From the sequence record DRR723986_13724: 34,989 nt of DNA. One strand, 5' to 3'. A program made the position numbers and the translations under genes. Below the pieces are notes generated by a model. The model was not told where the DNA came from. It saw only the letters and a program-made list of their open reading frames with translations, and did not search any database. Shown here piece after piece: positions 2,856 to 34,397 of this stretch (positions within the stretch are counted from its first letter, which is position 1; the number at the start of each line of letters is the position of its first letter).

Positions 2856-3191
2856 CTATCCCCTGACCGGATAGCGGTCAGGCTCCTCGAAGACATCGAT
2901 CACCTTGGTTCCGGCCTTGATGATCGCACTGTGCTCCGCCCCGCTGGGAATATCGTAGATAGCGCCCGGACCCATCGTCCTTGTTTCACCAGAGATGGTG
3001 AATTCGATCTCGCCGCTCAGGACAGTGCCCCATTGCGCCAGATGCGAATGCGGCGGCAGGACCATGTCCTTCACGAAATCGAAAAAAACGACCAGTCCGG
3101 CGTCCGAGCGCACTGCGTAGGATCTGACAACGTCCTCGGGAAAGGGAACATCGAGAGCGGGAAACTTTCGGATGAAATCTGGAAGCTGCAT
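2856..3191 (-). CDS. cupin domain protein
   Basis: PPHSH...WGTVLSGEIEF and IPSGAEHSA cupin metal-binding motifs; 111 aa; AGAGG ribosome-binding site. Confidence 0.85.
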   Translation of the reverse strand: MQLPDFIRKFPALDVPFPEDVVRSYAVRSDAGLVVFFDFVKDMVLPPHSHLAQWGTVLSGEIEFTISGETRTMGPGAIYDIPSGAEHSAIIKAGTKVIDVFEEPDRYPVRG

Positions 3192-3243
3192 GGACCTCTT
3201 GCCTCAAACGGATCGTGTTGAGGCAAGTCTGGACCAGGTCGGC

Positions 3244-5796
3244 CTATCCGTTCAAGACATCCTTCACAGTCGTCGCAAGCTGCTTCAGCGTGAAAGGCTT
3301 GGGCAGGAAGAAGAACTGTTCGCCCGGTGGCAGGTTTTCCTCGAAGGCGTCCTCGGCATAACCGGACACGAAGATGATCTTGAGGTCCGGCCGGGTCTTG
3401 CGCAGCTCGACCAGAAGCGTCGGCCCGTCCATTTCCGGCATGACCACATCGGAGACCACGAGATCGATCTTGCCGTCGGTCTCTTCCATGACCTCCAGTG
3501 CCTCGTTGCCCGAGCCCGCCTCGTAGACGGTGTAGCCGCGCGACGCGAGGGCACGGGCGCCAAAGGCACGCACGGCCTCCTCGTCTTCCACCAGCAGGAT
3601 CGACGCGGAACCGGTCAGATCCTTGACCTTTTCCGGCTCGACTTCCTTCGGCTCCGGCTTTTTCTTCTCCACGACCTTCGGAATGTGGCGTGGCAGGAAC
3701 AGACGGAACGTCGTGCCGACATCGACTTCGGAGGTACAGAAAATGAAACCGCCGGTCTGTTTGACGATGCCGTAAACCGTCGACAGGCCAAGGCCCGTTC
3801 CCTTGCCGACTTCCTTGGTGGAGAAGAACGGATCGAAGATCTTCTCCATCACGTCGGGCGGAATGCCGTGGCCCGTGTCGTCCACCTCGACAAGGGTGTA
3901 TTCGCCCGGTGGCATGCCGCGGATGTTGTCGAACTGAGTGCTTTCGGCTTCGTTGACGTTGCGCGTACGGATGGTCAGACGGCCACCGTCGGACATTGCA
4001 TCGCCCGCGTTTACCGCCAGGTTGACGATCACCTGCTCCAGCTGGTTCAGGTCGGCCATGACCGGCCACAGGTCCCGGCCGTGGATCACCTTCAGTTCCA
4101 CCTTCTCGCCCAGCAGGCGGTCAAGCAGGATGGAGAGATCTGCCAGAACGTCGTTCAGCTCCAGTTGCTGCGGACGCAGCGTCTGACGACGCGAGAAGGC
4201 CAGAAGCTGCCGCACGAGGCCGGCTGCACGGTTGGCGTTCTGCTTGATGTTCATGATGTCCTGGAAGGACGGATCGGTCGGCCTGTGGCTTGCCAGGAGC
4301 AGATCCGAGAAGCCGATGATCGCAGTCAGGACGTTGTTGAAGTCATGCGCGACACCCCCGGCCAGCTGGCCGATGGCCTGCATCTTCTGGCTCTGGGCGA
4401 ACTGGGCTTCCAGGGCTCGCTGCTGGGTGGTTTCAAGCGCGTAGACGATGGCGGCTTCGCCGTCACCCTCACCTTCCTGCACTGCGGAGACGTAGAAGGT
4501 TGCGGAACGCGGGTCATTGCCCTCGACCAGGGGAATGTCTATCGGCGCAATCTCGCCGATCCCGTTGGCAGCAGCCTGGAGAGATTTCGCCAGCTCCTGC
4601 CGCCCGCTCTCGGCCACATAAGCCTCCAGCTTGGGAGATTCGTCATCCGTATCGACCGCACCGAACAGCTTCAGGAACGGCGCGTTGGTTCTCAGGACCC
4701 GGCCTTCCTTGTCGAGCGAGGCAATGGCGATCGGCGTGTTGTTGAAGAAACGGGCAAAGCGGACTTCCGCCGCCCGAAGCGCCTCGGAGGCTTCCTCTCC
4801 GCGAGACCTGTTGAGAACCAGTGTGCGGCTGTCACCCGGCTGGCCGTTTTCACCGAAAGGCACACGGTGAAGCAGTCGTACCGGCAGGCCGCGTCCGTTG
4901 CGGGTGACGAAGTCGAGATCAAAGGTTTCGCTCTTGACCTCGCCCGCCTGACCCTTGATCGAGCGGATCAGCTCGGTGCCGTCGCCGCGCACGATGCTCG
5001 AAAGATCGAGGTCGCCGGCGTCGAACTGGGCAAGATCGTAGCCAAGCCAGTCGGCCAGGGTGGCGTTGAGATAGACGATGCGGCCTTCCGCATCACAGGA
5101 GAAGAAACCGGCCGGCGCGTGATCCAGGAAATTGATGACGCGCTGCAGTTCCTGAAACGAGTTTTCCTGTTCGGCCCGGTCGCGGGTGATATCGGCCAGC
5201 TGCCAGACCGCCATGGGCTTGCCACCGCCGCGTTCCTTGGACACCTGCAACGGGCGGATCGACACCCGATACCAGCGCGCAGCGCCGTCGGCCCTGCCGA
5301 GCGGGAACGGCATGCGGATCTCTTCTTGCGCCCTGCGGCTGTCGCGCATGGCCTGGGACAGGCGGAAAATGGCGTCGGCGGCATCCGGATCGGAGGAAAA
5401 CACACGCTCGACCACACGGATGTCGGCAGCGGTTTCAGCGCCGGTCAGATCAGCATAGGCCTTGTTGGCATAGACAAGCCGGCCGTCCAGGTCGGTAATG
5501 AGCGCTCCGTCTTCAAGAGTATCGACAAAAGCGGAGGCAAGCGGATTGGCTTCGCCTGGGCGGGCCGACAGACGCAGAAAGCCTATGGCTCCGGCAAACA
5601 GGCAGAAAACGCCGACGACAGCCAGGATACCGAGCAGCGCAAGAATAAACGGCTGCGCCACTTCGCGGTCCATGACCGCAAAGGCAGCAGCAGCGCCGAC
5701 GAGCAGCAGTGCGAGGCCTATGAGAAGGCCTATATTACCGGAACGTTCCGGGCGGCTGATCATCGGCCCGCTCGGCGTCCCGTCCATGTCACTCAT
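3244..5796 (-). CDS. cckA: cell-cycle hybrid histidine kinase CckA
   Basis: Two N-terminal TM helices, PAS domains, H-box [43 protein letters not shown], and a C-terminal receiver ([15 protein letters not shown]). Lies directly downstream of flhB. Confidence 0.93.
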
Positions 5797-5949
5797 CAAT
5801 CCTGTCTCCCGGGCCCGATTCGGTTCTTGAAGGGGCCGTACATAAGCATTCTGTGCTTAATAGCCGATTTCAACTGATATGCGACCAAGTCCTGTTGAAA
5901 TTCACCTGTTTGCCGCGGACTTTTTCAGTCCGCTATCCTTGAGAGCAAC

Positions 5950-9360: not shown

Positions 9361-9369
9361 CTCAAATGG

Positions 9370-9385
9370 TTAATGAAAAGTTAAC
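9370..9385. promoter_or_regulatory. CtrA binding box in the flgB/fliO divergent promoter region
   Basis: Perfect TTAA-TGAAAAG-TTAAC; it also matches the consensus on the reverse strand. Confidence 0.85.
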
Positions 9386-9477
9386 AGCCATTTACCTCTT
9401 CCGGCCCAAACCCTTCAAAAACCAGTGGAGGAGGCAACTTTCCTTTGCATTTCGCAAAAAGAGAGGCGCCGCCAACA

Positions 9478-9742: not shown

Positions 9743-11602
9743 ATGTATAACTGGATTGAGACCACATTCAACGTGAGCGGGGGCATCACGCAGGCTATTG
9801 CAGTCATCCTGGCTTTGGCCGTTGTGCTGCTGCTGTTCGGACTGTTTATTTTCATTCTAAAGCGCCTGATGGGGGCAAGTGCTCCACAAAGCCGCAACCG
9901 GCAGCCCCGGATTGCCATCATGGACAGTGCTTCTGTCGACGCTCGCCGCCGGCTGCTGCTCATTCGCCGGGACAATATCGAGCATCTCATCCTGGTCGGC
10001 GGCCCGAGCGACGTTGTGGTGGAACAGAATATCGTTCGCAACACCCCGCTGGCCCAGGCCCGGCCCGGACAACCGTCTCCCTCGAACCTGCCGATGCCGG
10101 TCAAGGCCGCAGTTGCCCCAGGACCGGAGATCCCGGCCCGGCCCGACGACTTCCTCGAAGAACAGGAAGTCGCAGCGCCCGCAGTCCAGGCACGTACGCC
10201 AGTTCCGTCTGCCGCGCCGCTAGCGCAGCCGGCTCCACCGGCGCCACAACAGGCCGCCCCGGAACCGCAACCTGCCACTCCGGCGGCACAGCCATCCGCG
10301 CCCGCGTCACCATCGTATCAGGCACCAGCCGCCCCGGTTGCCACGCCGGCAGCCCCCAGTGTGAGTTCGGCTGCACCGCAACGCAATTATTCGGAACCCG
10401 CTCCCTCCCGGCTTACCGCCACGCGTGCGGCCGAGAGTGCTCCGGCAACCGTACAAGCCCCGACGCCCCCGGCCCAACAGGCAACGCCACCCAAGACCAC
10501 CCCCGACAAGCCGGAAAGCGGTGGAGGACTGGGCCGCGCGAGCGATCTGCTACGTGCCGCCACTCAGAACGGCTTCAACCGGGCCGCTTCGAAACCAGCC
10601 GCTCCCGCGCCTGCTTCGCCGGAAGTTTCGCCTCCGCGAAGCACCGACGAAGGCAAGGTCGACATTGCTGCTGCCCTGGAAGCTGAGATACAGGGGAGTG
10701 AACCTGCAACAGCATCCGTAAAAGCGCCGGAAGTGCGCCCTGCCGTTCCGGCTCCCTCTGCCCCGCAGGAAAGCAAGACGGCTGCCACACTGAAGTCCCT
10801 GGCACGCCCGTTCACGGCCCGTGACCGGCCTTCCTATGGCGGTACGATCTCCCCGCCCGCTTCCGGACCGGCGGCACGTGCCAAAACCGCTCTCTTGAAG
10901 CCGGTTGAGCAGGTTCTGCCGGAACACAAGGTGGAGCCGGTGCTCGTTGCCGCAACCTTGACCGCAGCATCCACACCTCAACAAGCCCCCGCGCAGGAAG
11001 CTCCGGCGGAAGAAAGCATGCCGAAACCGGACCAGCCCGCCGACCTTGGCCAGGCGATGGCGGACACGGCGGACGAAAACGTCCAGATGGCCGATGCACA
11101 ACACTCTTCAAGCGATGTTTCAGAGCCCGAAGTGACTGAGGCAATCGAACCTGCCGACGTCACGGCGGATGATGAAGCCCGGACAGCGGCTTCCTTGGAA
11201 GAGGAAGCTGCCGAAACCGAAACACAGTCGGCCGCAGAAGCCGCCCCTTCCAGGGAACTCTCGCTGGATATCGGCGATCTCCTGGAAGACGTGCCGGAAG
11301 CGTCCCCCCCGGCTCAGGACAAACCCGAAGCGTCTTCCGCAGCGGAAATGCCAACTGACGAGGCATCTGCCGACGAGGCTGAAGAGACGCAGGAAGAAAC
11401 CGCAAGCGCTACTGCAACGGTCGCGCCGTCTGCTGTGGCATCGGTAGCGGCTCCTGCCCCGGTAACCGGCGGTCCCGTGACGAGCTCTGCGCCACCGGTC
11501 AAGGCGCCTGTCAGGCCTTCCGCCGGTTTGGGCGACAGAAATCCCATCGAGGAAGAAATGGCGAAGATCCTGGACGAACTGGGTGGACAGTCAAACGGAT
11601 GA
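9743..11602 (+). CDS. fliO: FliO-family flagellar biosynthesis protein with a long Pro/Ala/Glu-rich C-terminal extension
   Basis: N-terminal TM helix, then QPRIAIMDSASVDARRRLLLIRRDNIEHLILVGGPSDVVVE (alphaproteobacterial FliO core). ATGA-coupled to fliP; GAGGG ribosome-binding site. Confidence 0.85.
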   Translation: MYNWIETTFNVSGGITQAIAVILALAVVLLLFGLFIFILKRLMGASAPQSRNRQPRIAIMDSASVDARRRLLLIRRDNIEHLILVGGPSDVVVEQNIVRNTPLAQARPGQPSPSNLPMPVKAAVAPGPEIPARPDDFLEEQEVAAPAVQARTPVPSAAPLAQPAPPAPQQAAPEPQPATPAAQPSAPASPSYQAPAAPVATPAAPSVSSAAPQRNYSEPAPSRLTATRAAESAPATVQAPTPPAQQATPPKTTPDKPESGGGLGRASDLLRAATQNGFNRAASKPAAPAPASPEVSPPRSTDEGKVDIAAALEAEIQGSEPATASVKAPEVRPAVPAPSAPQESKTAATLKSLARPFTARDRPSYGGTISPPASGPAARAKTALLKPVEQVLPEHKVEPVLVAATLTAASTPQQAPAQEAPAEESMPKPDQPADLGQAMADTADENVQMADAQHSSSDVSEPEVTEAIEPADVTADDEARTAASLEEEAAETETQSAAEAAPSRELSLDIGDLLEDVPEASPPAQDKPEASSAAEMPTDEASADEAEETQEETASATATVAPSAVASVAAPAPVTGGPVTSSAPPVKAPVRPSAGLGDRNPIEEEMAKILDELGGQSNG

Positions 11603-12369: not shown

Positions 12370-12474
12370 AGCACCCGGCCAAGTCGTTAAAAGTAGAAGA
12401 AAATTAAGATAGGACTGTAATAGTTACAGCCGTGCGGGCTCGAATTGTGCCCCTTCGTTAATAGCGGCAGGACA

Positions 12475-13551
12475 GTGTTAAGAGAACAATTAGAACAGCT
12501 CGCCCGGATCAAAGAACCAGAGGCGAGATCAAAACTCATCCGCACGCTCGTCGGCGAATATGCGCGGTCGGAAGACCACGAGCCGACGGAGATGGAGCGG
12601 GAACTGTTTTCGCGAATTGTTCTCTCGGTTTTCGACCAGTTGGACCGCGCTGCACGCTACGAACTTGTCGTACGCCTTGCAAAAACCGACCGCATCATCC
12701 CCGACCTTGCGGACCGGCTCGCCCAGGAAGATTACGAACTGTCGGAACCGGTGATCGAATGCTCGCCGATGATCAGCCAGAACGGTCTCATGCAGATCGC
12801 CAAGAACGGCGGCAACGACAAGCGCAAGTCAACGGCAAAGAGACCTGATCTTTCCGAAGAGGTGACCGACACGATGATTGCGCGGGCCAGCCGGGATGTG
12901 GTCCACGAGCTCCTCCATAATATGGCAGCGCCCTTTTCCGTCCGAGGCACACTCGCCCTGCTGATCTTTGCAAACACGGAAGCAGACGTGCTCGCCGGCA
13001 TTGCAAGGCGTGCACTGGAAGACGAGGCATTTCTCCAAACCCAGATGGACATTCTGGAGACCAACTGTCCGCTGATCCCGCCTCCCCTCAAGAAGGCCCT
13101 GGAAACCGGCGAACTGCAGCGCCTGGCGAAGACCATCGAAGAGCGGCACGATGGCAGCATCGATCTCGACGGCGTCACTTACTCGCGCCACGAGGCCAGC
13201 ATCCAGATTGCCAACGGGGAACTCTCCTTCGATGCAATTCTGCGGACACTGTTCGAAGAAGGCCGCCTTGATGCGGCCATCTGGCTGATCAGCCGCAAGA
13301 TCAACCTCGCCGACGAGGTTGTTTCCGACACGCTGAAATCCGATGCGGATGGTGCAATCATGCGCCTGATGCTGCAGACCGGCATCCATGAAAAGACCTA
13401 TCGCGACTTCCTGAAAGCACGCTGCGAGTGGCTGGACCGAAGCACGCGGTCCATTCCCGAACTCGTCATGCGCTACAAGTCCGAACTCAAGAAACCGCAT
13501 AAGAACCCTGGTCAGCCGCCGTCACAGTCGCCTCTGAAGGCAGTCACCTGA
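12475..13551 (+). CDS. DUF2336-like all-helical protein
   Basis: Pattern LARIKEPEARSKLIR...ERELFSRIV...LVVRLA...LAQEDYELSEPVIECSP resembles the DUF2336 N-terminus. GTG at 12475 after AGGA is preferred over the track TTG at 12445. Confidence 0.7.
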   Translation: MLREQLEQLARIKEPEARSKLIRTLVGEYARSEDHEPTEMERELFSRIVLSVFDQLDRAARYELVVRLAKTDRIIPDLADRLAQEDYELSEPVIECSPMISQNGLMQIAKNGGNDKRKSTAKRPDLSEEVTDTMIARASRDVVHELLHNMAAPFSVRGTLALLIFANTEADVLAGIARRALEDEAFLQTQMDILETNCPLIPPPLKKALETGELQRLAKTIEERHDGSIDLDGVTYSRHEASIQIANGELSFDAILRTLFEEGRLDAAIWLISRKINLADEVVSDTLKSDADGAIMRLMLQTGIHEKTYRDFLKARCEWLDRSTRSIPELVMRYKSELKKPHKNPGQPPSQSPLKAVT

Positions 13552-13587: not shown

Positions 13588-14352
13588 TCACGATGCCAGA
13601 AGATTTCTGTCCAGAAATGTCAGCAGGTTCTCGTGATGCAGGTTTTCTGCAGCACTGGTCGGGATATGGTCCTGGCCTTCGTAGATATGAACCTCCGGCT
13701 TCCGGCCACGGGCAAGAAGCCGCGACTCCAGACGCTTTGTCATGTCCACTGACCAGACCCGGTCGGCCGACCCGTGGCTCAGGAAAATCGGTCCGTCGTA
13801 GCGTTCTATTTCGATCTGTTTCGTAGGAAGAAGGTTCTCGGAAGACCCGCGCCAGGACCATGCCCGCTCACCGGGGTCCCATGGCTGCCAGCCTGGATCT
13901 CCAGCGTCGCGGTAAGCCTTGCTGTCGAACGCCCCGCACACAACGTCTGGCGGACTGTGCACAGCCACCGCGTCAGGCAGGCCGTCAAGACCTTCCTCCG
14001 CCATCAGGGCTGTCAGCAAAAGGGCATGTTCAGCCCCCCGCGACACGCCATAGAATGCCGCCTTTTCACCAACGGCCTCAAATGCACGCAGCGCCCGGAA
14101 GGCATCCAGACTTCTGTCCAGTGACACGTTTTCAATGCTGCCGGCATTCCAGGCATTGCCCCCCTTCGAATAGCCGAAAGGAAAGGCAAGATAACCATGT
14201 GCTGCCAGGAGAACCGCATTTCGATGGCTCCAGCCTGACCATGCCCCCTCTGAGCCATGAAACACCATGACGGCAGGAAAGGGTCCCTCGCCTGCAGGAC
14301 CATAGGTCGTGCCCCATTCCGGGATAAGACGCCGGACGATTTTCAAGGACAT
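13588..14352 (-). CDS. alpha/beta hydrolase (BAAT/acyl-CoA thioesterase C-terminal-like)
   Basis: HGSEG oxyanion region, GVSRG nucleophile elbow, GSADRVW and EGQDH for the Asp/His. ATG at 14352 with AAGGA upstream; the track's upstream extension is probably non-coding. Confidence 0.85.
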   Translation of the reverse strand: MSLKIVRRLIPEWGTTYGPAGEGPFPAVMVFHGSEGAWSGWSHRNAVLLAAHGYLAFPFGYSKGGNAWNAGSIENVSLDRSLDAFRALRAFEAVGEKAAFYGVSRGAEHALLLTALMAEEGLDGLPDAVAVHSPPDVVCGAFDSKAYRDAGDPGWQPWDPGERAWSWRGSSENLLPTKQIEIERYDGPIFLSHGSADRVWSVDMTKRLESRLLARGRKPEVHIYEGQDHIPTSAAENLHHENLLTFLDRNLLAS

Positions 14353-14572
14353 GAAGGAGTTCCTTTGTTCCGGTGTTCCAAAGCCAACGAACCGACACAT
14401 CCACCGCTGCAAAACGGAAAGGTGGGGCCATGAGGCCGGATAATCAGGTTCTTTGTGAGAACGTGCGGCGGATCGCGACACGTGTGGAAGGGTAACCGAC
14501 CGCAACTGAACAGGAGTTGGCACCGGTGCGCAAGTCCCCCTGCAACCGGACAACCTTCACACAGCGTCAGCT

Positions 14573-17500
14573 TCAGCCGGCGTTTTCTTCCGTGACGGGC
14601 GCAGCGGCAGACTGATCCGGGCTGCGATCGGGAGACATGTACTGACGCCGGTATTCTTTCAGGAAGGTTTCCAGTGAATCGACATCGGCAAGCCTGTTGG
14701 CGACTTCGAGGAACTCGACACCCTGCGCCTCGATCGGCCGGGTCACGACCTCAAAGGACATTGCCTCGGGGCTGTCGGACATCTTGGACATGTACTTTGT
14801 CTGCAGGCGTTCCAGGCTGAGCTGGTCGCCCGCCAGTGAATAGGCGATGGCCGCCCGCAGGATGTCGCGGCGTTCAAGATCGTCGAGCGGAATGTTGTCG
14901 GACCAGCGCGAGCCATGCATCGCTTCCAGCTGCTCACCCGCATCCCGCCAGCTTTCGGCTGCCCAGAATGTATCTGCCCGCAACCGATCGACATCCGAAC
15001 CGCGCATGTTGCGAACCAGTTCCAGGGCAAGATCCGGGCGCCCGCTTTCGGTCAGGGCACGGGCTTCAACGATGTTGCGCTGACGCTCCAGGGTCGACGG
15101 AAGGCTCGCCTGCCGTGTCCGGTTGAGCACCCGCAGTGCTTCCTCGGCCTTGCGATCCATCAGGTAGATCGCGGCAAGATCCGCTGCAATCTGCGCCCGC
15201 GCGGCACCTTTCAAGCGGTTGTCAACCTGATGGCGCAGCAACTCGGTTGCCTGGTCCAGCAAGTCGACTTCCACCAGTCTCTTGGCCAGAAGGCGGACCA
15301 TCTCGTCTCCCTGACGACCGATCGGCACAAGTTCGCGGAAATCATAAAAGAGTGCCAGCGCCTTCACCGGCTGCATCTCGTCCGCCTTGCCGTCCAGGAA
15401 CAACGCGTTGAAGAGGCCGTTCATCTCTTCCTGCAGCAGCCGCGTGGTATCTGCATCGGGTTCAGCCTGAACGGCAGATTTCATGGCTTCGAACGCTTCG
15501 CGGTACTGGCCCTGCTCGGCATAGAGCTGTGCCAGGAACCTCAATGTCTTCAATTCGATTTCATCACCGCGCCAGGACGTTGCCAGCCCGGCAAGCTGAT
15601 CGATGGCTTGCTCCATGTTGAGTTCGCCATCCCGGTAACGGATCCGGAGCGCGCGGTATTCCGCTTCGGCCGCCCGCGGCCGGTCGTCGGACCTGGTCAC
15701 GAGATCGAACACGGTCAAGGCTTCCTGCGACCGGCCGGAGGCATCGGCAACGCGGCCACGCAGGATATCGTAACGGGCAGCCTGCGTCCGCGTCACTTCG
15801 GCCGGCTCGATCTCGGCCAGCACGCTGTTGGCAACACCGAAATCATTGACCTCGACCATGGCCTGTGCGGCGGCGAGCTTGAATTCTGTCTGGATGGCTT
15901 CCGGGTAGTTGCCGACCACGGCCCGTCCGCGCGGCATGGCAATACGGGCAGACGTCCAGTTACCCAGTTTCACATCAACAATCGTCTGCCAGACAGCAGC
16001 ATCGGGGCTGTTCTTCAGGTCTGGTCGGTTCAGATGCGCATAGGCCGCGTCGGGCCGGTTGGCCAGGGTCTGGGCCGCCCCCATCATCAGGTTGAAGGAA
16101 CTGTCTTCGGCAAGTGCCGGTTCTTCTTCCAGCGCAAGCTTCATCAGCCCCAGCGCTTCCTGTGCAAACTGATGCGCCAGATAGAACCGCGACAAAGCCA
16201 TCAAGGGCTTGCGGCGCTTGCCTGTCGGCGACTTCGCCAGCTTGTCCTGCAGCTCCAGCAGGCGGGTGCGGTAAGCCCCCGGACCTTCGGTGCTCAGGGA
16301 AACGAACTCGATGAAATTGCTGTCTTCCGGATCGACGATTGTCTGGCTCGATCCGGATCCGCCTCGCAGATGCTGGCTGGAAAGCGCAAGACCGCCTTCC
16401 TTTTCGATGATCACGTCATCGCCAAGGATCTTCATCTTCAAGCCGTCAGACTTCGGCACGACGGCAATGCCCTGCGCGGAACTCAGGGCGTCCAGGTCGA
16501 CAAACGTCTGAGGCTTCAACAGACCGCGTGGCGGACCGAAGCCGGTGACAAGAGATATCGTGTCGCCAACGAACGGGTCGGTAATCTGACGGATGTTCTG
16601 CGGATCCTGATAGAGCACACGCAGCACGGAGCCGCCATCGCCTCGCACAGTCCGTTCCAGCTGCAGCGGAATGGAGGGTTCCAGGATCAGGTCGCCGATA
16701 ACGAGCGACCAGGCATTGCCGTCAACACCCACCGTCGCCAGTACAGGATCGGTCATGTCCATCCGCAGGATCTGGTAATCGTCGAACTGCTGAACCTCGA
16801 TCGTTTCCGCCGTTTCGGCCAGCGCCGAGACCATCCCCCGGGTGTCGATCGTGGCATCGGTATCGAAGATCAGCCAGATGCTGTCATTGCGCCGGAACAC
16901 CGCGCTGGAAACCGGCTCGGAGAACGGAAACACAACGCGGACTGTGTTACCGATGCGCCGGGCTTCAGCAGAAACGAAATTGCGCACTTCCTCAGCGAAG
17001 TTTTCCGGCGGCTGCTCCGGTGAGGGACGCCCCTGGTTCAAATCCTGACCGCCGTTGGCGCGCCAGGTTTCCGGTGCTGATTGCTGCGTGCCGGGAAGCT
17101 GGATCCCGGCTGGAACGTCGCCGCTACCAAGCGTCGGCGTGTTCAGGATCTGCACTGGCGTTGCGCCATACGGCGCATTCGGCTGGCTACCCCGGTTGAT
17201 TGTCTCGACCTGCTGTAGTGTCGGAATGCCGTTGTTCTCGGGCGCGGCTTCCTGTTGCTGGTCGCCGATCTGCTGCGTGGACAAGTCCAGCATCGGCGCT
17301 TCCCGGACGATTTCCTCATCCTCCGGCAGCACTTCGTTCAACGGCAAAGCACCGGGTTCAGCCTGGGCAACGGTTACCAGACCAGCGTTGGACGGGGCAA
17401 CGGCGTCGTTTCCGTTGGTTGCTTCGGCCGCGGGAATGGCCGCTGTCGTCAGAAATTCAGCTGCGCCATCAACCGAAATCGGCAGGACAGCGGCAGCAAG

Positions 17501-18862
17501 CTCTGGTGCAGGAAGCGTTTCGACCGCCAAGGCGGTCGGAGTGACGTCAACACCAGCGGCAGCGATCTCGGTTCCGCTACCTGGCCCTGGCAGCGCTTCT
17601 TCCCCAACCAACGGTTTGATGCGCGGGACCATGGCAAGCTGAGTTTCGGCCGGAGCGTTCGCACGTCCGGCTTCCGGATCGGGCTCGGCCGACAGTGCGG
17701 CGGACTGATCAGAGTTTTCAACGGCTGACGGCTGTGGTGCTTGCGGCGCCTCGGCTCCCTCATCCGTCTTGCCGCCTCCCAGCGGAACAATCGTATAGGC
17801 CGGCGATTCATCGGCCTTGGACTCCTTCAGGACCCCGCCTCCGCTCGCAGTGCTGCCGCCGGACGTCGGATTCCCGCGCGGGTTCTTGACCTCACGCGTG
17901 TCGCGCAGGCCCGGCGCGGTAATCATGTCCTTGCGGTTTTCGTTGTCCTCGACGGACAGTTCCTTGTTGATCAGCGCATTTGCCGGATCATTCACTTCCA
18001 TGTTTTCCGGCGTCACGTCGATAACGTAGGTCTGTTCCTCCCGGAACGCCCGAATGTCGACCGAAGGCTCGACGCGCATAAGGAACTTCAGCTTGCCCTG
18101 ATCCAGGAAGGAAGTCGCGTCGATCACCCCTTGGGGCAGATGCGCGCGCAGGTGGGCAATGTCCAGCTGTGCCGGATGGTTGAACGTCACCTTGATGATG
18201 TCGTTTTCGCGCACGAAAGCGGTGTCGAACTTGATAGACCAGTCAAACACCAGACGGGTGAATGTCGGATGCTCACCCACATGCAGCGTCACCTCCGGCC
18301 CTTCCTGAGCCTTGAGTCGCGCCTGTTCGAGGGCGCGAACCTTGCGCATCGCCTCTTCGGCACGCTTTGCAAGATCACGCACGACATCGTCGGGAAGTCC
18401 TGGCGGCAAGCCCTGCCAGTCCATCGGCAGGATATCGACAAACAGCTTTTCGCCGGCTTCCAGAGTATTGATCTGGAACTGGTTCTTCAGTGCAAAGCGG
18501 ATGGCACTTCCGTCCGGATCTCGCCGGGCAATGGTCACGTAGTCGCCCAGGTCCAGCGGAACATCGTCAACGTTGATGTCGATCGGATCTTCAAATGAAA
18601 TCCGCAGGACCCCGCCTGTGATGACCGCATCATAGATCGGAAGCAGCGTGCGGTCCTTGAACGTCAGGACGATACGGCCATAACCCTCCCCCGGAGAAAC
18701 GGTCAGATCAACCGGTTCCAGATTGTCGGATTGGGCCAGAGCGGCACCCGTGACGCAGGCCAGAACAAGCCAGAACGAAACCAGCAGGCGCGCGAAAGTT
18801 CGCACCCTGTCCGAAAACGCGGGAGTTCCGCCGGTCTGGGATGTCAGGAACGGTCCTGGCAA
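14573..18862 (-). CDS. large secreted TPR-repeat protein of the fliL-fliM-motE operon (putative periplasmic motor scaffold)
   Basis: Signal-peptide-like N-terminus (ALA/Q); repeated beta-rich modules (YGRIVLTF, FTRLVFDW, TVRVVFPF); a low-complexity central linker; C-terminal helical TPR-like repeats (LAQLYAEQGQYREAFEAM). TTG start with GAGGA upstream. Confidence 0.85.
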   Translation of the reverse strand: MPGPFLTSQTGGTPAFSDRVRTFARLLVSFWLVLACVTGAALAQSDNLEPVDLTVSPGEGYGRIVLTFKDRTLLPIYDAVITGGVLRISFEDPIDINVDDVPLDLGDYVTIARRDPDGSAIRFALKNQFQINTLEAGEKLFVDILPMDWQGLPPGLPDDVVRDLAKRAEEAMRKVRALEQARLKAQEGPEVTLHVGEHPTFTRLVFDWSIKFDTAFVRENDIIKVTFNHPAQLDIAHLRAHLPQGVIDATSFLDQGKLKFLMRVEPSVDIRAFREEQTYVIDVTPENMEVNDPANALINKELSVEDNENRKDMITAPGLRDTREVKNPRGNPTSGGSTASGGGVLKESKADESPAYTIVPLGGGKTDEGAEAPQAPQPSAVENSDQSAALSAEPDPEAGRANAPAETQLAMVPRIKPLVGEEALPGPGSGTEIAAAGVDVTPTALAVETLPAPELAAAVLPISVDGAAEFLTTAAIPAAEATNGNDAVAPSNAGLVTVAQAEPGALPLNEVLPEDEEIVREAPMLDLSTQQIGDQQQEAAPENNGIPTLQQVETINRGSQPNAPYGATPVQILNTPTLGSGDVPAGIQLPGTQQSAPETWRANGGQDLNQGRPSPEQPPENFAEEVRNFVSAEARRIGNTVRVVFPFSEPVSSAVFRRNDSIWLIFDTDATIDTRGMVSALAETAETIEVQQFDDYQILRMDMTDPVLATVGVDGNAWSLVIGDLILEPSIPLQLERTVRGDGGSVLRVLYQDPQNIRQITDPFVGDTISLVTGFGPPRGLLKPQTFVDLDALSSAQGIAVVPKSDGLKMKILGDDVIIEKEGGLALSSQHLRGGSGSSQTIVDPEDSNFIEFVSLSTEGPGAYRTRLLELQDKLAKSPTGKRRKPLMALSRFYLAHQFAQEALGLMKLALEEEPALAEDSSFNLMMGAAQTLANRPDAAYAHLNRPDLKNSPDAAVWQTIVDVKLGNWTSARIAMPRGRAVVGNYPEAIQTEFKLAAAQAMVEVNDFGVANSVLAEIEPAEVTRTQAARYDILRGRVADASGRSQEALTVFDLVTRSDDRPRAAEAEYRALRIRYRDGELNMEQAIDQLAGLATSWRGDEIELKTLRFLAQLYAEQGQYREAFEAMKSAVQAEPDADTTRLLQEEMNGLFNALFLDGKADEMQPVKALALFYDFRELVPIGRQGDEMVRLLAKRLVEVDLLDQATELLRHQVDNRLKGAARAQIAADLAAIYLMDRKAEEALRVLNRTRQASLPSTLERQRNIVEARALTESGRPDLALELVRNMRGSDVDRLRADTFWAAESWRDAGEQLEAMHGSRWSDNIPLDDLERRDILRAAIAYSLAGDQLSLERLQTKYMSKMSDSPEAMSFEVVTRPIEAQGVEFLEVANRLADVDSLETFLKEYRRQYMSPDRSPDQSAAAPVTEENAG

Positions 18863-18955
18863 GATGTTCTGTCCTCGGATGACGCCAACACACTATTGTT
18901 AGTCAGGTCTTGTTAACGTGCCCTTACGCGATACGCCGAAATCCGGTCTTCTCGG

Positions 18956-19687
18956 TCAGTTTGACGGAATTTTCGGCAAGGCCTCCGGCGCTTGCGCCTG
19001 TGCCTGCACCGGTTTTGTGTCCGCTGAGGGCAACGGAGAGGCGTTCGCGATTGCCACTGTCATGCGCTCGGCCGCTTCGGGATCCATTTTCCCGAGGATA
19101 TCTGCCATCTTTCGAGGTTTCATCTGGCGCACCACCTTCAAAAGGACCGGCAGGCTCAAGCGATCGAAGATCCGGGCTGCATCTTTCGGCTTCATGCTTT
19201 CGTACATGGTCACGAGGCCGGCAATTTCGTTTTCTTCCTGCTCCTGCTTCTGTCCGACAGCTGCCTCGATGCGCTCTTCGAGCTTCTTCAGTTCGTCAAC
19301 GCGCTTTTGAATGCGCTCTTCGGTGGCCTGCAGAAGCTTTTCACGCAGGTCCAGCTGGCCTTCATGCTCCTGCAGCGACTCGCGCCGTCTGCCAAGACTT
19401 TCCAGAACAGCGCGCTCCGCGGCCGAACCCCCGATTTCAAGACTGTCCGGCAGGGCCGGCTGGTCGGGCAGCCCGCCCCCCGGCGGCGGTGGTGGCGGCG
19501 GACCATCCGCGGCCATTTCAGCCGTTGGATCAGCCATGTCACCGCCGTCAGCTCCCGGCGTTTCCTGTGCGACTGCGCCATTGATGGGCAGGTTGCCGCT
19601 TTGCGGGCCCAGCGCGAAGCCAAGCAGCTTCAGGGCCAGCAGAGCGCTTGCCGAAACACCCAACAAAGGCAGCAGTCTCAAGTTCAT
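18956..19687 (-). CDS. motE: MotE-family periplasmic flagellar motility protein
   Basis: Signal/anchor, Pro-rich linker, coiled coil, then an MgtE_N-like LVTMYESMKPKDAARIF...MKPRKMADILGKMDPEAA region. Confidence 0.85.
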   Translation of the reverse strand: MNLRLLPLLGVSASALLALKLLGFALGPQSGNLPINGAVAQETPGADGGDMADPTAEMAADGPPPPPPPGGGLPDQPALPDSLEIGGSAAERAVLESLGRRRESLQEHEGQLDLREKLLQATEERIQKRVDELKKLEERIEAAVGQKQEQEENEIAGLVTMYESMKPKDAARIFDRLSLPVLLKVVRQMKPRKMADILGKMDPEAAERMTVAIANASPLPSADTKPVQAQAQAPEALPKIPSN

Positions 19688-20241
19688 GCAGCAGCACCGT
19701 TCCGTTTACGGAATTGTTCCAGCCGCGCAGTTGCTTCCGCCGCAGCACTGCGAATGTCGGAAGCCCGGCTGCTCCTGCGGCGCTCCGGCTCCACGGCCGG
19801 AGCTGCCTGGCCATAGCCTGCAGCCTGTTGCGCGTATTGTTGCGGTTCCGGTTGCGGCTGAGCCGCATAAGGATCGCTCCTCGTCACCGCCTCGCGCTGC
19901 GGCGCAGCCGAACGGGCCGCCTCCGCAATCTGCGAAATTCTCGTGAATACTATCTCACCTTCGCCGACTTGTTCGGCAAGAGTGTGAGACATGGTTTCCG
20001 CTTGCTTAAGACGGCTGCCAAGTGTCTTGTCAGCCTCTGCCGCGGTCGTCTTCAGACCGAGGATGGCACGCTCGGCAATTTCCGTGGCCGTCATGAGCTC
20101 CGAAATGGTCGCACGCAGTACCTCTTCGTCGGCCCGCAAGCGCTGCAGACGGCGGTTCAGCGTGAAGCAGTAGCCGATGGTAATCACCAGAAGAACCGCG
20201 ACCAGTCCTTCAATGATCATTCCGAGTGGCAAAGTGCTCAT
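19684..20241 (-). CDS. single-TM coiled-coil protein, PflI/DUF6468-like
   Basis: N-terminal TM (LVAVLLVITIGYCFTLNRRLQRLR), coiled coil and Pro/Gln-rich tail. ATGA-coupled to both fliM and motE; same position as pflI after fliM in Caulobacter. Confidence 0.75.
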   Translation of the reverse strand: MSTLPLGMIIEGLVAVLLVITIGYCFTLNRRLQRLRADEEVLRATISELMTATEIAERAILGLKTTAAEADKTLGSRLKQAETMSHTLAEQVGEGEIVFTRISQIAEAARSAAPQREAVTRSDPYAAQPQPEPQQYAQQAAGYGQAAPAVEPERRRSSRASDIRSAAAEATARLEQFRKRNGAAA

Positions 20242-21476
20242 TGGTCCCCCATTTCGCTTTGCATGGCGCGCTCGAAGGCGGCCAGCGTCATTTTTGGCTT
20301 GCGCAAATTCTTTGCGACACGGATGGCAATGGAATCCTCCACCTTGCCGAGCGTTCCCTCGGTCAGTGGAATGTTGCCGCATTTGATCATCACCGGATCG
20401 GTCGGTTCCTTGTCGAAGACAAGCGTCTGGCCGACATCGAGACTGAGCACCCGTCCGAGCGGCAGATAGGTCTCGTAAAGAACCGCATCGACCTCGACTT
20501 CCGCGGCATGAATTTCGGTCGCCAAATGGCCTTCCCAGATCGGATCCCGGCCGAATTTTTCCCCCATGAACATCTGCAGAAGCAGATCGCGGATCGGCTC
20601 CAGCGTTGCATAGGGCATCATGATTTCGACGGACCCGCCCCGGTCTTCCATGTCGATTCTGAGCTCGACGAGAATGGCGGCGTTTGCGGGCCGGGAAATC
20701 GCGGCAAAGCGCGGGTTCGTCTCAAGACGTTCCAAGTTGAAATGGACCGGAGAAAGCGGCGCGAAGGCGTGCTCGGCATCCTGAAGGATCAGCGCCACCA
20801 TCTGCTGGACCAGACCGGTCTCGATCGTGGTGTAGGGCCGGCCCTCGACGCGCACGGCCGATGTCCCCCGACCTCCACCAAGAAGCACGTCGATAATCGA
20901 ATAGATCAGGCTGGATTCAACGGTAATCAGACCAAACCCGTCCCATTCCTCGGCCTTGAAGACACCGAGAATGGCTGGCAGCGGGATGGAATTCAGATAG
21001 TCGCCGAAACGAACCGAGCTGATGGAATCGAGCGAGACTTCCACGTTGTCGGACGTGAAGTTGCGCAAGGACGTGGTCGTCAGACGCACAAGACGGTCGA
21101 ACACGATTTCGAGCATCGGCAGACGCTCGTAGGATACCATTGCCGAGTTAATCAGCGCGCGGATGCCGCTCTGGTCGCCAGCAATCGTGTCCTCGATGTT
21201 GAAGCCGAGGAGGTTGTCGATTTCTTCCTGGTTCAGGACACGGTCGGCACCGCGCGTGGCATTTTCAAGGTCCGGTTCGCTGTCGTCGATCATGGCTGCC
21301 CATTGGGCCGCCATGTCGTCGGAACTGCCGGCGCCCTGCTCCTCTAGAGCAGCACCCCACGCCGCGGCGAGATCTTCGTCGTCGTCGCTGCCGGCACCCT
21401 GCTCTGCAAGAGCGGCGCCCCAGGCATCGGCCATGTCCTCTTCGGACAGGTCGTCATCGTCGTCGATATCAGCCAT
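20238..21476 (-). CDS. fliM: flagellar motor switch protein FliM
   Basis: CheY-binding VLNQEEIDNLL, ERLPMLEIVFDR, LLGGGRG, RPYTTIE and ETNPRF motifs. Confidence 0.97.
   Translation of the reverse strand: MADIDDDDDLSEEDMADAWGAALAEQGAGSDDDEDLAAAWGAALEEQGAGSSDDMAAQWAAMIDDSEPDLENATRGADRVLNQEEIDNLLGFNIEDTIAGDQSGIRALINSAMVSYERLPMLEIVFDRLVRLTTTSLRNFTSDNVEVSLDSISSVRFGDYLNSIPLPAILGVFKAEEWDGFGLITVESSLIYSIIDVLLGGGRGTSAVRVEGRPYTTIETGLVQQMVALILQDAEHAFAPLSPVHFNLERLETNPRFAAISRPANAAILVELRIDMEDRGGSVEIMMPYATLEPIRDLLLQMFMGEKFGRDPIWEGHLATEIHAAEVEVDAVLYETYLPLGRVLSLDVGQTLVFDKEPTDPVMIKCGNIPLTEGTLGKVEDSIAIRVAKNLRKPKMTLAAFERAMQSEMGDQ
21325..21435. repeat. 63-bp-period degenerate tandem repeat in the fliM 5' end
   Basis: CTGCCGGC(g/a)CCCTGCTC at 21325 and 21388; encodes two copies of AxAWGAALxEQGAGS. 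Confidence 0.75.
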
Positions 21477-21484
21477 TCACAAAG

Positions 21485-21997
21485 TCACTGGACAAGGATT
21501 TCCTTGAACAGCACCCCTTCAACTTTCGCCGGATAAACCGACAGATTGATCCGTCTGAGCAATTCTTCCTTCAGGCGGAACAAACCGGCAGACCCTTCCA
21601 GGTCCGCAGGGCGAAGCTCGCGCAGATAGATCTGAAACGCATCCAGGATGCGCGGCAGATACGGCTGGATCTGATCGATCATCGCACGGTTCTCGACTTC
21701 CAGGGCAATCCTGACCTTCAGATAGGTCGTGCGCCCTTCCGTCGCCAAATTCACCGTCATTTCCGGAAGGTCATAGAAGACCACCGGTTTTTGCACTTCC
21801 TGCGGCGCTTCCGTCTCTCCGGGAACCGGTGCCGGTGCACTCGACCCCATCAGGAAATAATAGGCCGCCCCACCCGCGGCGAGCAGAACCACCAGACCGA
21901 TGCCGCCGAACAGGATAAGCTTCTTCTTGCGGCCACCGCCACCAGCTTCAGCTCCATCCTCGCCGTCTTCTCCGGCTGCGGCGTTTTCGTCTGTCAT
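21485..21997 (-). CDS. fliL: flagellar basal body-associated protein FliL
   Basis: KKKL plus TM helix; FYDLPEMTVNL, DLEGSAGLFRLKEEL and VLFKEILVQ motifs. Confidence 0.96.
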   Translation of the reverse strand: MTDENAAAGEDGEDGAEAGGGGRKKKLILFGGIGLVVLLAAGGAAYYFLMGSSAPAPVPGETEAPQEVQKPVVFYDLPEMTVNLATEGRTTYLKVRIALEVENRAMIDQIQPYLPRILDAFQIYLRELRPADLEGSAGLFRLKEELLRRINLSVYPAKVEGVLFKEILVQ

Positions 21998-22037: not shown

Positions 22038-22082
22038 TTACTAAAGAGTTAATGGTTAACGAATGGTTACCGAGCCATTAAC
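22038..22082. promoter_or_regulatory. cluster of CtrA-like boxes upstream of fliL
   Basis: TTAC-N7-TTAA (22038-22052), TTAA-N7-TTAC (22056-22070) and TTAC-N7-TTAAC (22067-22082). Confidence 0.75.
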
Positions 22083-34363: not shown

Positions 34364-34397
34364 TTAGGGGGCTGTTAAGGTTAATTTACGCTAACCA
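34364..34397. promoter_or_regulatory. CtrA-like site array upstream of flagellin
   Basis: In-phase TTAG-N7-TTAA-N7-TTAC (34364-34389), plus TTAA at 34381 and CTAACCA at 34391. Confidence 0.55.

Follow-up and report, generated by a model that had tools for sequence, protein, structure and literature searches.

The locus analyzed here raises the question of whether the genes that follow fliL and fliM in a flagellar gene cluster encode a periplasmic scaffold which keeps the MotAB stators in place around the motor. It occupies positions 14,573 to 20,241 of a 34,989-nucleotide stretch of DNA from sequence record DRR723986_13724, hereafter referred to as the window, and comprises three genes whose products are a 185-residue PflI-like protein, a 243-residue protein and a 1429-residue protein with four beta-sandwiches (D1 to D4) and a tetratricopeptide repeat (TPR)-like solenoid. 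A first-pass annotation, made from the sequence alone, had proposed that the products of this trio build a spoke or ring for the stators. The findings presented below favor the view, which we consider probable, that the 243-residue protein is of the MotE/FlgY/FlbB type and the 1429-residue protein of the FssB/MotK type of AMIN-TPR proteins, and that the two would jointly keep the stators in place, with the PflI-like protein standing apart. Gene identities, folds, family membership, synteny and co-occurrence were computed in this study; motor function is taken from papers on relatives.

Based on its sequence, the window is assigned to Roseibium (Stappiaceae, Alphaproteobacteria) and to a polar-type flagellar cluster; in a scan of named genomes, a probe stretch was 99% identical to its counterpart in R. 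aggregatum IAM 12614, and in the nearest genome compared the counterpart of the 1429-residue protein is 100% identical. The list of open reading frames (ORFs) contains five consecutive genes on the minus strand, i.e., fliL, fliM and the genes for the 185-, 243- and 1429-residue proteins (Table 1), in line with the earlier description of three genes following fliL-fliM on a single strand. The stop codon of fliM overlaps the start codon of the pflI-like gene in an ATGA sequence, and a second ATGA overlap connects the stop of the pflI-like gene to the start of motE; the coupling previously claimed for the first two genes of the trio is thus found at their junction and likewise at the one preceding it. 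A 93-nt spacer separates motE from the gene for the 1429-residue protein, which starts with TTG, is preceded by GAGGA 9 nt upstream and has an alternative GTG start at position 18805. The arrangement of genes at this locus is far from chance.

The assignment of the two periplasmic candidates is carried first by their relatives in Caulobacter. The corresponding locus of C. segnis (L111) is ordered flgH-flgA-flgG-flgF / fliL-fliM-DUF6468 (161 residues)-MotE (270 residues)-954 residues-/fliP, which is the order published for Caulobacter, i.e., CC_2060 (pflI) / CC_2059 / CC_2058 (fssB) (PMC10954123, PMC13023049), and the 954-residue protein is therefore the fssB-position counterpart. BLASTP aligned the 1429-residue protein to it with 35% identity over 752 residues (E 2e-124) in an alignment that extends over D3, D4 and the entire TPR part, while a second segment matches D2. 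A BLASTP match of 31% identity (E 2e-19) between the 243-residue protein and the C. segnis motE-position protein supports the earlier placement of the second gene of the trio in the MotE family. A further link was found to MotK, which in Paracoccaceae is encoded in an operon with the reported order fliL-pflI-motE-motA-motK (PMC10954123). Two genomes exhibit the Pfam-checked order FliL, DUF6468, MgtE_N-type, MotA, X, where X is a protein of 816 or 832 residues, and HHalign comparison of X with the family profile of the 1429-residue protein (A1) gave probabilities of 99.4 (E 2e-21, 469 columns) and 96.3 (E 1.7e-9, 397 columns). Because of the C. segnis BLASTP match and this HHalign bridge, FssB-type and MotK-position proteins are regarded as one sequence family, with the 1429-residue protein as a member. 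CC_2058 had been noted as a distant structural homologue of MotK, and the bridge supports by sequence a unity of FssB and MotK which that report proposed from structure only (PMC10954123).

The 243-residue protein is, on the evidence of its matches and layout, classed as a MotE/FlgY/FlbB-type (COG3334) protein. In addition to the C. segnis match, it returned a sub-threshold hit (1.4e-6) to the NCBIfam model of the spirochaete collar protein FlbB. Its layout begins at the N-terminus with a signal/anchor segment and a Pro-rich spacer, continues with a helical stretch that is conserved and a putative MgtE_N/ARM-like head, and closes with a tail; the motif of the head is invariant across 42 relatives (alignment A4). 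In the same alignment the variable tail was seen to end in a short LPKI-type motif (18959-18985, minus strand), which is conserved in this order and not present in many more distant MotE proteins. This tail could be a TPR-binding peptide.

What these proteins do in a motor has been reported for the relatives. Deletion of fssB in Caulobacter was described to retain filaments and abolish rotation, as in a motB mutant, and fssB was assigned to the stator-dependent pathway (PMC7885107). The MotE and MotK proteins of the Fla2 system of Cereibacter were reported to be periplasmic, polar and required for rotation, to bind each other and MotB2, and, in the case of MotK, to require MotAB for localization; the authors proposed that stators are recruited or activated by a structure in the periplasm (PMC10954123). 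MotE, FlgY and FlbB are treated as one and the same E-ring protein in a 2026 review, which draws on Feng et al. 2026 and in which CC_2059 is proposed to build the E-ring of Caulobacter and to have the PflA-like CC_2058 as its binding partner (PMC13023049). The scaffold idea and the key genetics are consequently already published for Alphaproteobacteria, and the discovery made here is modest. The earlier statement that such a structure is poorly characterized in this lineage holds for Roseibium; it does not hold for Alphaproteobacteria, for which the hypothesis is in print (PMC13023049).

The Roseibium proteins resemble these systems to different degrees. FssB (CC_2058 / CCNA_02137) of Caulobacter crescentus is likewise a secreted TPR protein whose gene directly follows pflI and motE in the fliLM cluster; however, as compared via C. 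segnis, the Caulobacter-type protein has 954 residues, lacks one of the N-terminal sandwiches and has hardly any linker, whereas the window protein has 1429 residues, four sandwiches and a linker of ~320 residues. MotK of Cereibacter sphaeroides Fla2 is also periplasmic, with an AMIN-like N-terminus, a TPR-like C-terminus and a fliL-pflI-motE-(motA)-X operon, and the MotK-position proteins of the two genomes with this gene order are profile homologues of the TPR part of the window protein; MotK of C. sphaeroides differs in its length of 652 residues, its single AMIN-like domain and the position of motA between motE and motK. More remote parallels are MotE-MotC of Sinorhizobium meliloti and FlbB-FlcB of Borrelia, each of which consists of a small MotE/FlbB-type protein and a TPR partner with an effect on stators (PMC13023049). 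They differ in that motE of Rhizobiaceae is located between flgI and flgH (PMC10954123), MotC of S. meliloti is described as lacking an AMIN domain (PMC13023049), and FlbB of Borrelia is membrane-anchored in the spirochaete collar. The Roseibium version is new in its linker expansion, its four-AMIN layout and a conserved CtrA-like box before the gene for the AMIN-TPR protein.

The architecture of the 1429-residue protein was modelled with AlphaFold2, using alignments of relatives, for residues 40-300 (mean predicted local distance difference test score, pLDDT, 91.9) and 620-1429 (mean pLDDT 86.7). The translation starts with what reads as a Sec-type leader, in which a basic n-region precedes a hydrophobic core and an A-x-A motif at residues ~41-44, and the models exhibit beta-sandwiches followed by a TPR-like solenoid (Table 1), consistent with the secreted protein of beta-rich modules and TPRs that had been described from the sequence. 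D1 and D2 are predicted to be eight-stranded sandwiches joined by a 29-residue helix (residues 158-186). The AMIN-like fold of the N-terminal part was recognized by Foldseek with a probability of 1.0, and in VIA-align D2 fits the AmiC AMIN domain (4bin; Z 12.4, root-mean-square deviation (rmsd) 2.3 Å over 100 residues) and the AMIN/B2 domains of PilQ (Z 10.8-12.7; 4aqz, Z 11.1). D2 and D3 are homologous according to HHalign (probability 96.6, E 5e-10), and therefore the sandwich modules are repeats of one domain. The linker between them is of low complexity and poorly conserved, and its length was found to range from 206 to 338 residues in Roseibium loci and from 22 to 226 residues in other relatives with the N-terminal sandwich pair; the ‘giant’ size of the protein comes from this linker and not from additional repeats. 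As to the solenoid, Pfam returned weak TPR matches, a profile search of PDB sequences matched consensus TPR proteins down to E 3e-16, and the most conserved stretch is located at approximately residues 1165-1220.

A structural comparison with the Campylobacter/Helicobacter scaffold protein PflA, which had been put forward as a check of the scaffold proposal, pointed in the same direction. Using the model of the C-terminal 810 residues as a query against 350,542 PDB chains, Foldseek returned as its top match chain K of 9hmf, a periplasmic scaffold of C. jejuni (E 1.2e-11), followed by a generic TPR protein (E 1.2e-8). We infer that this chain is PflA from its 773 residues and from a published account in which PflA consists of a beta-sandwich and, connected to it, 16 TPRs (PMC12222027). 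VIA-align, furthermore, fitted D2 to the N-terminal PflA domain of known structure (9leq_A), with a Z of 8.5 and an rmsd of 3.1 Å over 91 residues. PflA of Campylobacter jejuni and Helicobacter pylori shares with the window protein an N-terminal beta-sandwich and a long TPR superhelix; PflA spokes are reported to meet the E-ring formed by the MotE-type protein FlgY and to help hold stators (PMC12222027, PMC13023049). In C. jejuni, PflA spokes and a PflB rim are described as holding 17 stators (PMC12222027). FlgY and FlbB are described as forming the E-ring and contacting PflA and FlcB, respectively (PMC13023049). PflA differs in having one sandwich, which binds PflB; a partner of the PflB, basal disk or cage kind was not seen in this analysis, in which no search aimed at one was made.

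To what extent the AMIN-TPR gene and motE occur together was assessed in collections of genomes and loci. The gene for the AMIN-TPR protein is present in all 25 genomes of the genus that were searched, and of 16 other families of the order 10 have it. A search with the last 810 residues of its product was positive for 177 out of 301 genomes drawn from the class, the matching open frames measuring ~420-1720 residues. Among 40 class- and order-level loci, whose selection favored large contigs and a range of E-values, so that they are not a random sample, 32 have motE on the same strand no more than 8 kb upstream, and 31 contain all of fliL, fliM, the DUF6468 gene and motE. The 80 best database loci, from named genomes or metagenome-assembled genomes (MAGs) and found with a search alignment of 22 rows, included 66 with at least 5 kb of upstream DNA, and among these the corresponding counts are 62 and 60. 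This synteny survey agrees with the scaffold proposal in keeping fliL-fliM-pflI-motE upstream of the AMIN-TPR gene. A MotE profile search of the same 301 genomes was positive in 180; both genes were found in 169, the AMIN-TPR gene only in eight, MotE only in 11 and neither in 113, a tally of co-occurrence and not of independent events, given that both genes track flagella and that the genomes are kin. Five of the 11 MotE-only genomes were searched again with the family profile, upon which four gained a match, three of these just downstream of motE. A lack of co-conservation between the TPR gene and motE, which the first-pass annotation had named as evidence against its proposal, is contradicted by these counts.

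Some details of the loci of relatives are of note. The gap between motE and the AMIN-TPR gene measures 0.75-6 kb in many other alphaproteobacterial lineages (L017, L019, L021, L024, L026, L043), where it contains cheY and cheZ together with a tandem pair of MotB_plug genes, of which only one encodes an OmpA domain. Of 54 gap ORFs, 43 were scanned, yielding MotB_plug (18), single-domain receivers (9), CheZ (6), CheB with a receiver (1) and no match to MotA. A family with a 655-residue short form of the protein (G082) was considered as MotK-bearing and rejected: the protein is present in one of its 14 genomes, and the gap holds a transglutaminase-like gene on the opposite strand, not motA. In several relatives the frame of the AMIN-TPR gene is interrupted: G066:C2:2318336-2320729 has three in-frame TGA codons, and some nine others have one TAA, TAG or TGA each. 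Pseudogenes, errors of sequencing or a split of the gene could account for such stops.

The first gene of the trio was found to differ from the other two in its likely location. Its 185-residue product matches DUF6468 with 83.4 bits, compared to a Pfam cut-off of 26.9. As read from the translation, and in keeping with the earlier description of a single-transmembrane protein, it has a single hydrophobic span at residues 8-28, directly followed by four basic residues and then by the helical DUF6468 region. According to the positive-inside rule, a basic cluster after a membrane span marks the cytoplasmic side. PflI of Caulobacter has been reported to be bitopic with a cytoplasmic, proline-rich C-terminal part, to be recruited by TipF and to be required for correct flagellar placement (PMC3792480). 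Because of the basic residues after the span and this reported topology, the DUF6468 domain of the window protein probably faces the cytoplasm, with the C-terminus inside, and the PflI-like protein is therefore not counted in the periplasmic scaffold. It shares with PflI of C. crescentus the DUF6468 domain, one N-terminal membrane span and a gene position between fliM and motE; the sequence similarity is weak, however, with a BLASTP identity of 26% (E 2e-5) to the C. segnis pflI-position protein, through which the comparison was made and which itself matches PF20072 at 7e-10. The PflI-like protein is probably a separate membrane protein that would contribute to positioning the flagellum at the pole or to nucleating it there. 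The tight coupling of its gene to fliM and motE points to a protein that assembles together with the nascent basal body, on its cytoplasmic face.

In the arrangement that we regard as probable, dimers of MotE would encircle the MS-ring as a small ring from which coiled coils run radially, i.e., the E-ring, and MotE as well as the periplasmic part of MotB would serve as docking sites for the TPR solenoid of the AMIN-TPR protein, with its conserved stretch at residues ~1165-1220 as a candidate contact surface. The AMIN-like sandwiches may fix this assembly to peptidoglycan and the cell wall or to further parts of the scaffold, and MotE and the AMIN-TPR protein would together hold the MotAB stators in place in an open, active state. 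Loss of motE or of the AMIN-TPR gene would then be expected to result in assembled but paralysed flagella. Hence, the spoke or ring proposed for the trio is supported for MotE and the AMIN-TPR protein, based on homology, fold and the reports on relatives (PMC10954123, PMC7885107, PMC13023049, PMC12222027), and is not supported for the PflI-like protein (PMC3792480).

A number of observations weigh against this arrangement. The top Foldseek match, 9hmf_K, has a low template-modelling score (TM-score) of 0.26; in rigid superposition with VIA-align, the model of residues 620-1429, and with it the TPR part, fits generic TPR proteins as well as any (Z ~18), an outcome that by itself speaks neither for nor against a likeness to PflA; and PflA, AmiC and FlgY were absent from the PDB-sequence profile matches of A1, A2 and A4 (up to E 10 for PflA), which were generic TPR proteins where there were any, so that similarity at the level of sequence to PflA was not found in these searches. 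On these results, the likeness to PflA, as far as the models can tell, is architectural and not proven common origin. The match of the 243-residue protein to PF03448 (MgtE_N) scores 23.5 bits, just under the cut-off of 25.9. Eight of the 40 loci have no motE within the DNA fetched around the AMIN-TPR gene. The window has no motA, and in the nearest genome compared (G001) the closest motA-motB pair is located ~1.4 Mb from the flagellar cluster. A C. jejuni flgY mutant is reported to stay motile, such that the E-ring is not everywhere needed for rotation (PMC13023049), and no study of the Roseibium motor was found among the literature matches listed.

Three other explanations of the locus were considered. 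MotE might merely be a periplasmic chaperone that stabilizes the TPR protein, or the reverse, with no ring or spoke and with the TPR protein alone activating MotB. Support for such a role comes from Sinorhizobium, where MotE has been suggested to serve as MotC's chaperone, a further point against the E-ring arrangement (PMC13023049), and from Cereibacter, where the stability of MotE depends on MotK (PMC10954123), and the review describes these alphaproteobacterial motors as being without electron cryo-tomography (PMC13023049). Yet MotE-GFP has been reported at the flagellated pole even in the absence of MotK or MotAB, and the MotE relatives FlgY and FlbB have been seen as rings in three motors (PMC13023049); the sub-threshold match of the window MotE to the FlbB model is consistent with membership of that group. 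A pure chaperone role is, on balance, unlikely. The full reading of the first-pass annotation, in which all three proteins make one periplasmic scaffold, draws on the ATGA coupling of the pflI-like gene to both fliM and motE and on the adjacency of pflI and motE, observed in 32 of the 40 and 60 of the 66 loci. The C-terminal domain of Caulobacter PflI, however, is described as cytoplasmic and as acting in placement via TipF (PMC3792480), and the basic cluster right after the hydrophobic span likewise argues for a cytoplasmic DUF6468 domain; we regard a scaffold of all three proteins as very improbable.

It could also be argued that the 1429-residue protein is a general envelope AMIN-TPR protein, serving division, Tol-Pal or pili, whose gene merely lies beside flagellar genes. 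AMIN domains are indeed best known from AmiC and PilQ, and the protein has a sub-threshold NCBIfam match to the type IX secretion system (T9SS) protein PorW/SprE, with an SprE chain also among the TPR structure matches. This explanation is nevertheless scarcely credible in view of the wide and tight linkage of the gene to motE and fliLM, of its presence tracking that of MotE over 301 genomes, and of the paralysed flagellum reported upon deletion of its Caulobacter counterpart (PMC7885107).

The scaffold of MotE and the AMIN-TPR protein may also have a regulatory side. Sites resembling the CtrA box TTAA-N7-TTAAC, allowing at most one mismatch, occur 12 times in the window compared to 0.92 expected, with the sole exact copy at 9369-9385, while the variant GTAA-N7-TTAAC occurs four times as an exact match compared to none in 100 shuffles. 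One of these four lies in the spacer between motE and the AMIN-TPR gene, as a candidate internal promoter element, and the others lie upstream of flgB/fliO, fliL/flgF and the flagellin gene. Across the Roseibium, Stappia and Pseudovibrio loci compared, the core of the spacer box is conserved and its flanks drift, which suggests that the AMIN-TPR gene also has its own CtrA-type promoter. Expression of this gene from the operon only was considered and, because of the conserved box, rejected as the sole reading.

An extended arrangement can be envisaged as a two-tier spoke, in which D3-D4 and the TPR part would dock on the MotE E-ring and MotB, D1-D2 on their flexible tether of ~320 residues would anchor to peptidoglycan or to structures at P-ring level, the LPKI-type tail of MotE would lie in the TPR groove, and the CtrA-like box would set scaffold dosage. 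This extension is tentative and, taken as a whole, rather doubtful; if true, the number of stators would be set separately from fliLM-pflI-motE through the dosage of the scaffold. The arrangement of MotE and the AMIN-TPR protein on its own would add a marine Stappiaceae genus to the bacteria that combine a MotE-type E-ring protein with a TPR partner of the PflA/FssB/MotK type, and the variation in domain number and linker could be used to probe how spokes set stator radius or anchoring.

Table 1. Positions in the window of the genes, protein domains and CtrA-box-like sites discussed in the text (AF2, AlphaFold2; aa, amino acids)
Feature	Position	Strand	Description
fliL	21485..21997	-	170 aa; first gene of the operon; Pfam FliL 1.7e-20
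fliM	20238..21476	-	412 aa; Pfam FliM 6.6e-64, FliMN_C 2.1e-16
PflI-like DUF6468 gene	19684..20241	-	185 aa; Pfam DUF6468 (PF20072) 1.2e-23
motE	18956..19687	-	243 aa; PF03448 (MgtE_N) 8.6e-5, sub-threshold
FssB/MotK-type periplasmic AMIN-TPR gene (putative)	14573..18862	-	1429 aa
Beta-sandwich D1	18413..18730	-	aa 45-150; AF2, strands at 10-107 of model
Beta-sandwich D2, AMIN fold	17978..18292	-	aa 191-295; AF2 and VIA-align
Linker, Ala/Pro/Glu/Gly-rich	16988..17977	-	aa 296-625 (~320 aa); composition
Beta-sandwich D3	16673..16987	-	aa 626-730; AF2; D2 homologue
Beta-sandwich D4	16388..16660	-	aa 735-825; AF2, strands at 116-202 of model
TPR-like alpha-solenoid	14633..16282	-	aa 861-1410, ~30 helices; AF2
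CtrA-box-like, two overlapping sites	22055..22082	-	each one mismatch from TTAA-N7-TTAAC; divergent fliL/flgF promoter region
CtrA-box-like GTAA-N7-TTAAC	18912..18927	-	93-nt spacer between motE and the AMIN-TPR gene; candidate internal promoter element
CtrA-box-like region	9369-9396		upstream of flgB/fliO
CtrA-box-like site	34374-34389		upstream of flagellin gene

The remainder of the window contains further flagellar genes, i.e., a divergent flgF-flgG-flgA-flgH cluster, fliE-flgC-flgB, a long fliO-like gene, fliP, flhB, fliR, flgI and the start of a flagellin gene. The fliO-like gene (9743-11602, plus strand) encodes 619 residues, of which only the first ~100 match FliO (Pfam 37-99, TIGR03500 25-86), and it lies where the GC content of the window peaks (0.68); the ORFs of relatives at this position range from 86 to 742 residues. 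Nineteen nucleotides after the AMIN-TPR gene lies a gene for an alpha/beta-hydrolase of the dienelactone hydrolase-like type (13588-14553, minus strand). Among 12 loci of the genus its counterpart was found only in L001, and in nine of the 11 others a DUF2336 gene directly follows the AMIN-TPR gene; the hydrolase gene therefore looks like a recent insertion that lies outside the module. In the window, the DUF2336 protein, which has a sub-threshold match to the NCBIfam model SpbR, is encoded at 12445-13551 on the plus strand; the presence of this gene between the AMIN-TPR gene and fliP is kept in most Roseibium loci and not in other families. Finally, a plus-strand ORF of 901 residues without a family match (3172-5877) overlaps a minus-strand ORF (3244-5799) for an 851-residue PAS/histidine-kinase/receiver hybrid, and is for this reason probably spurious.

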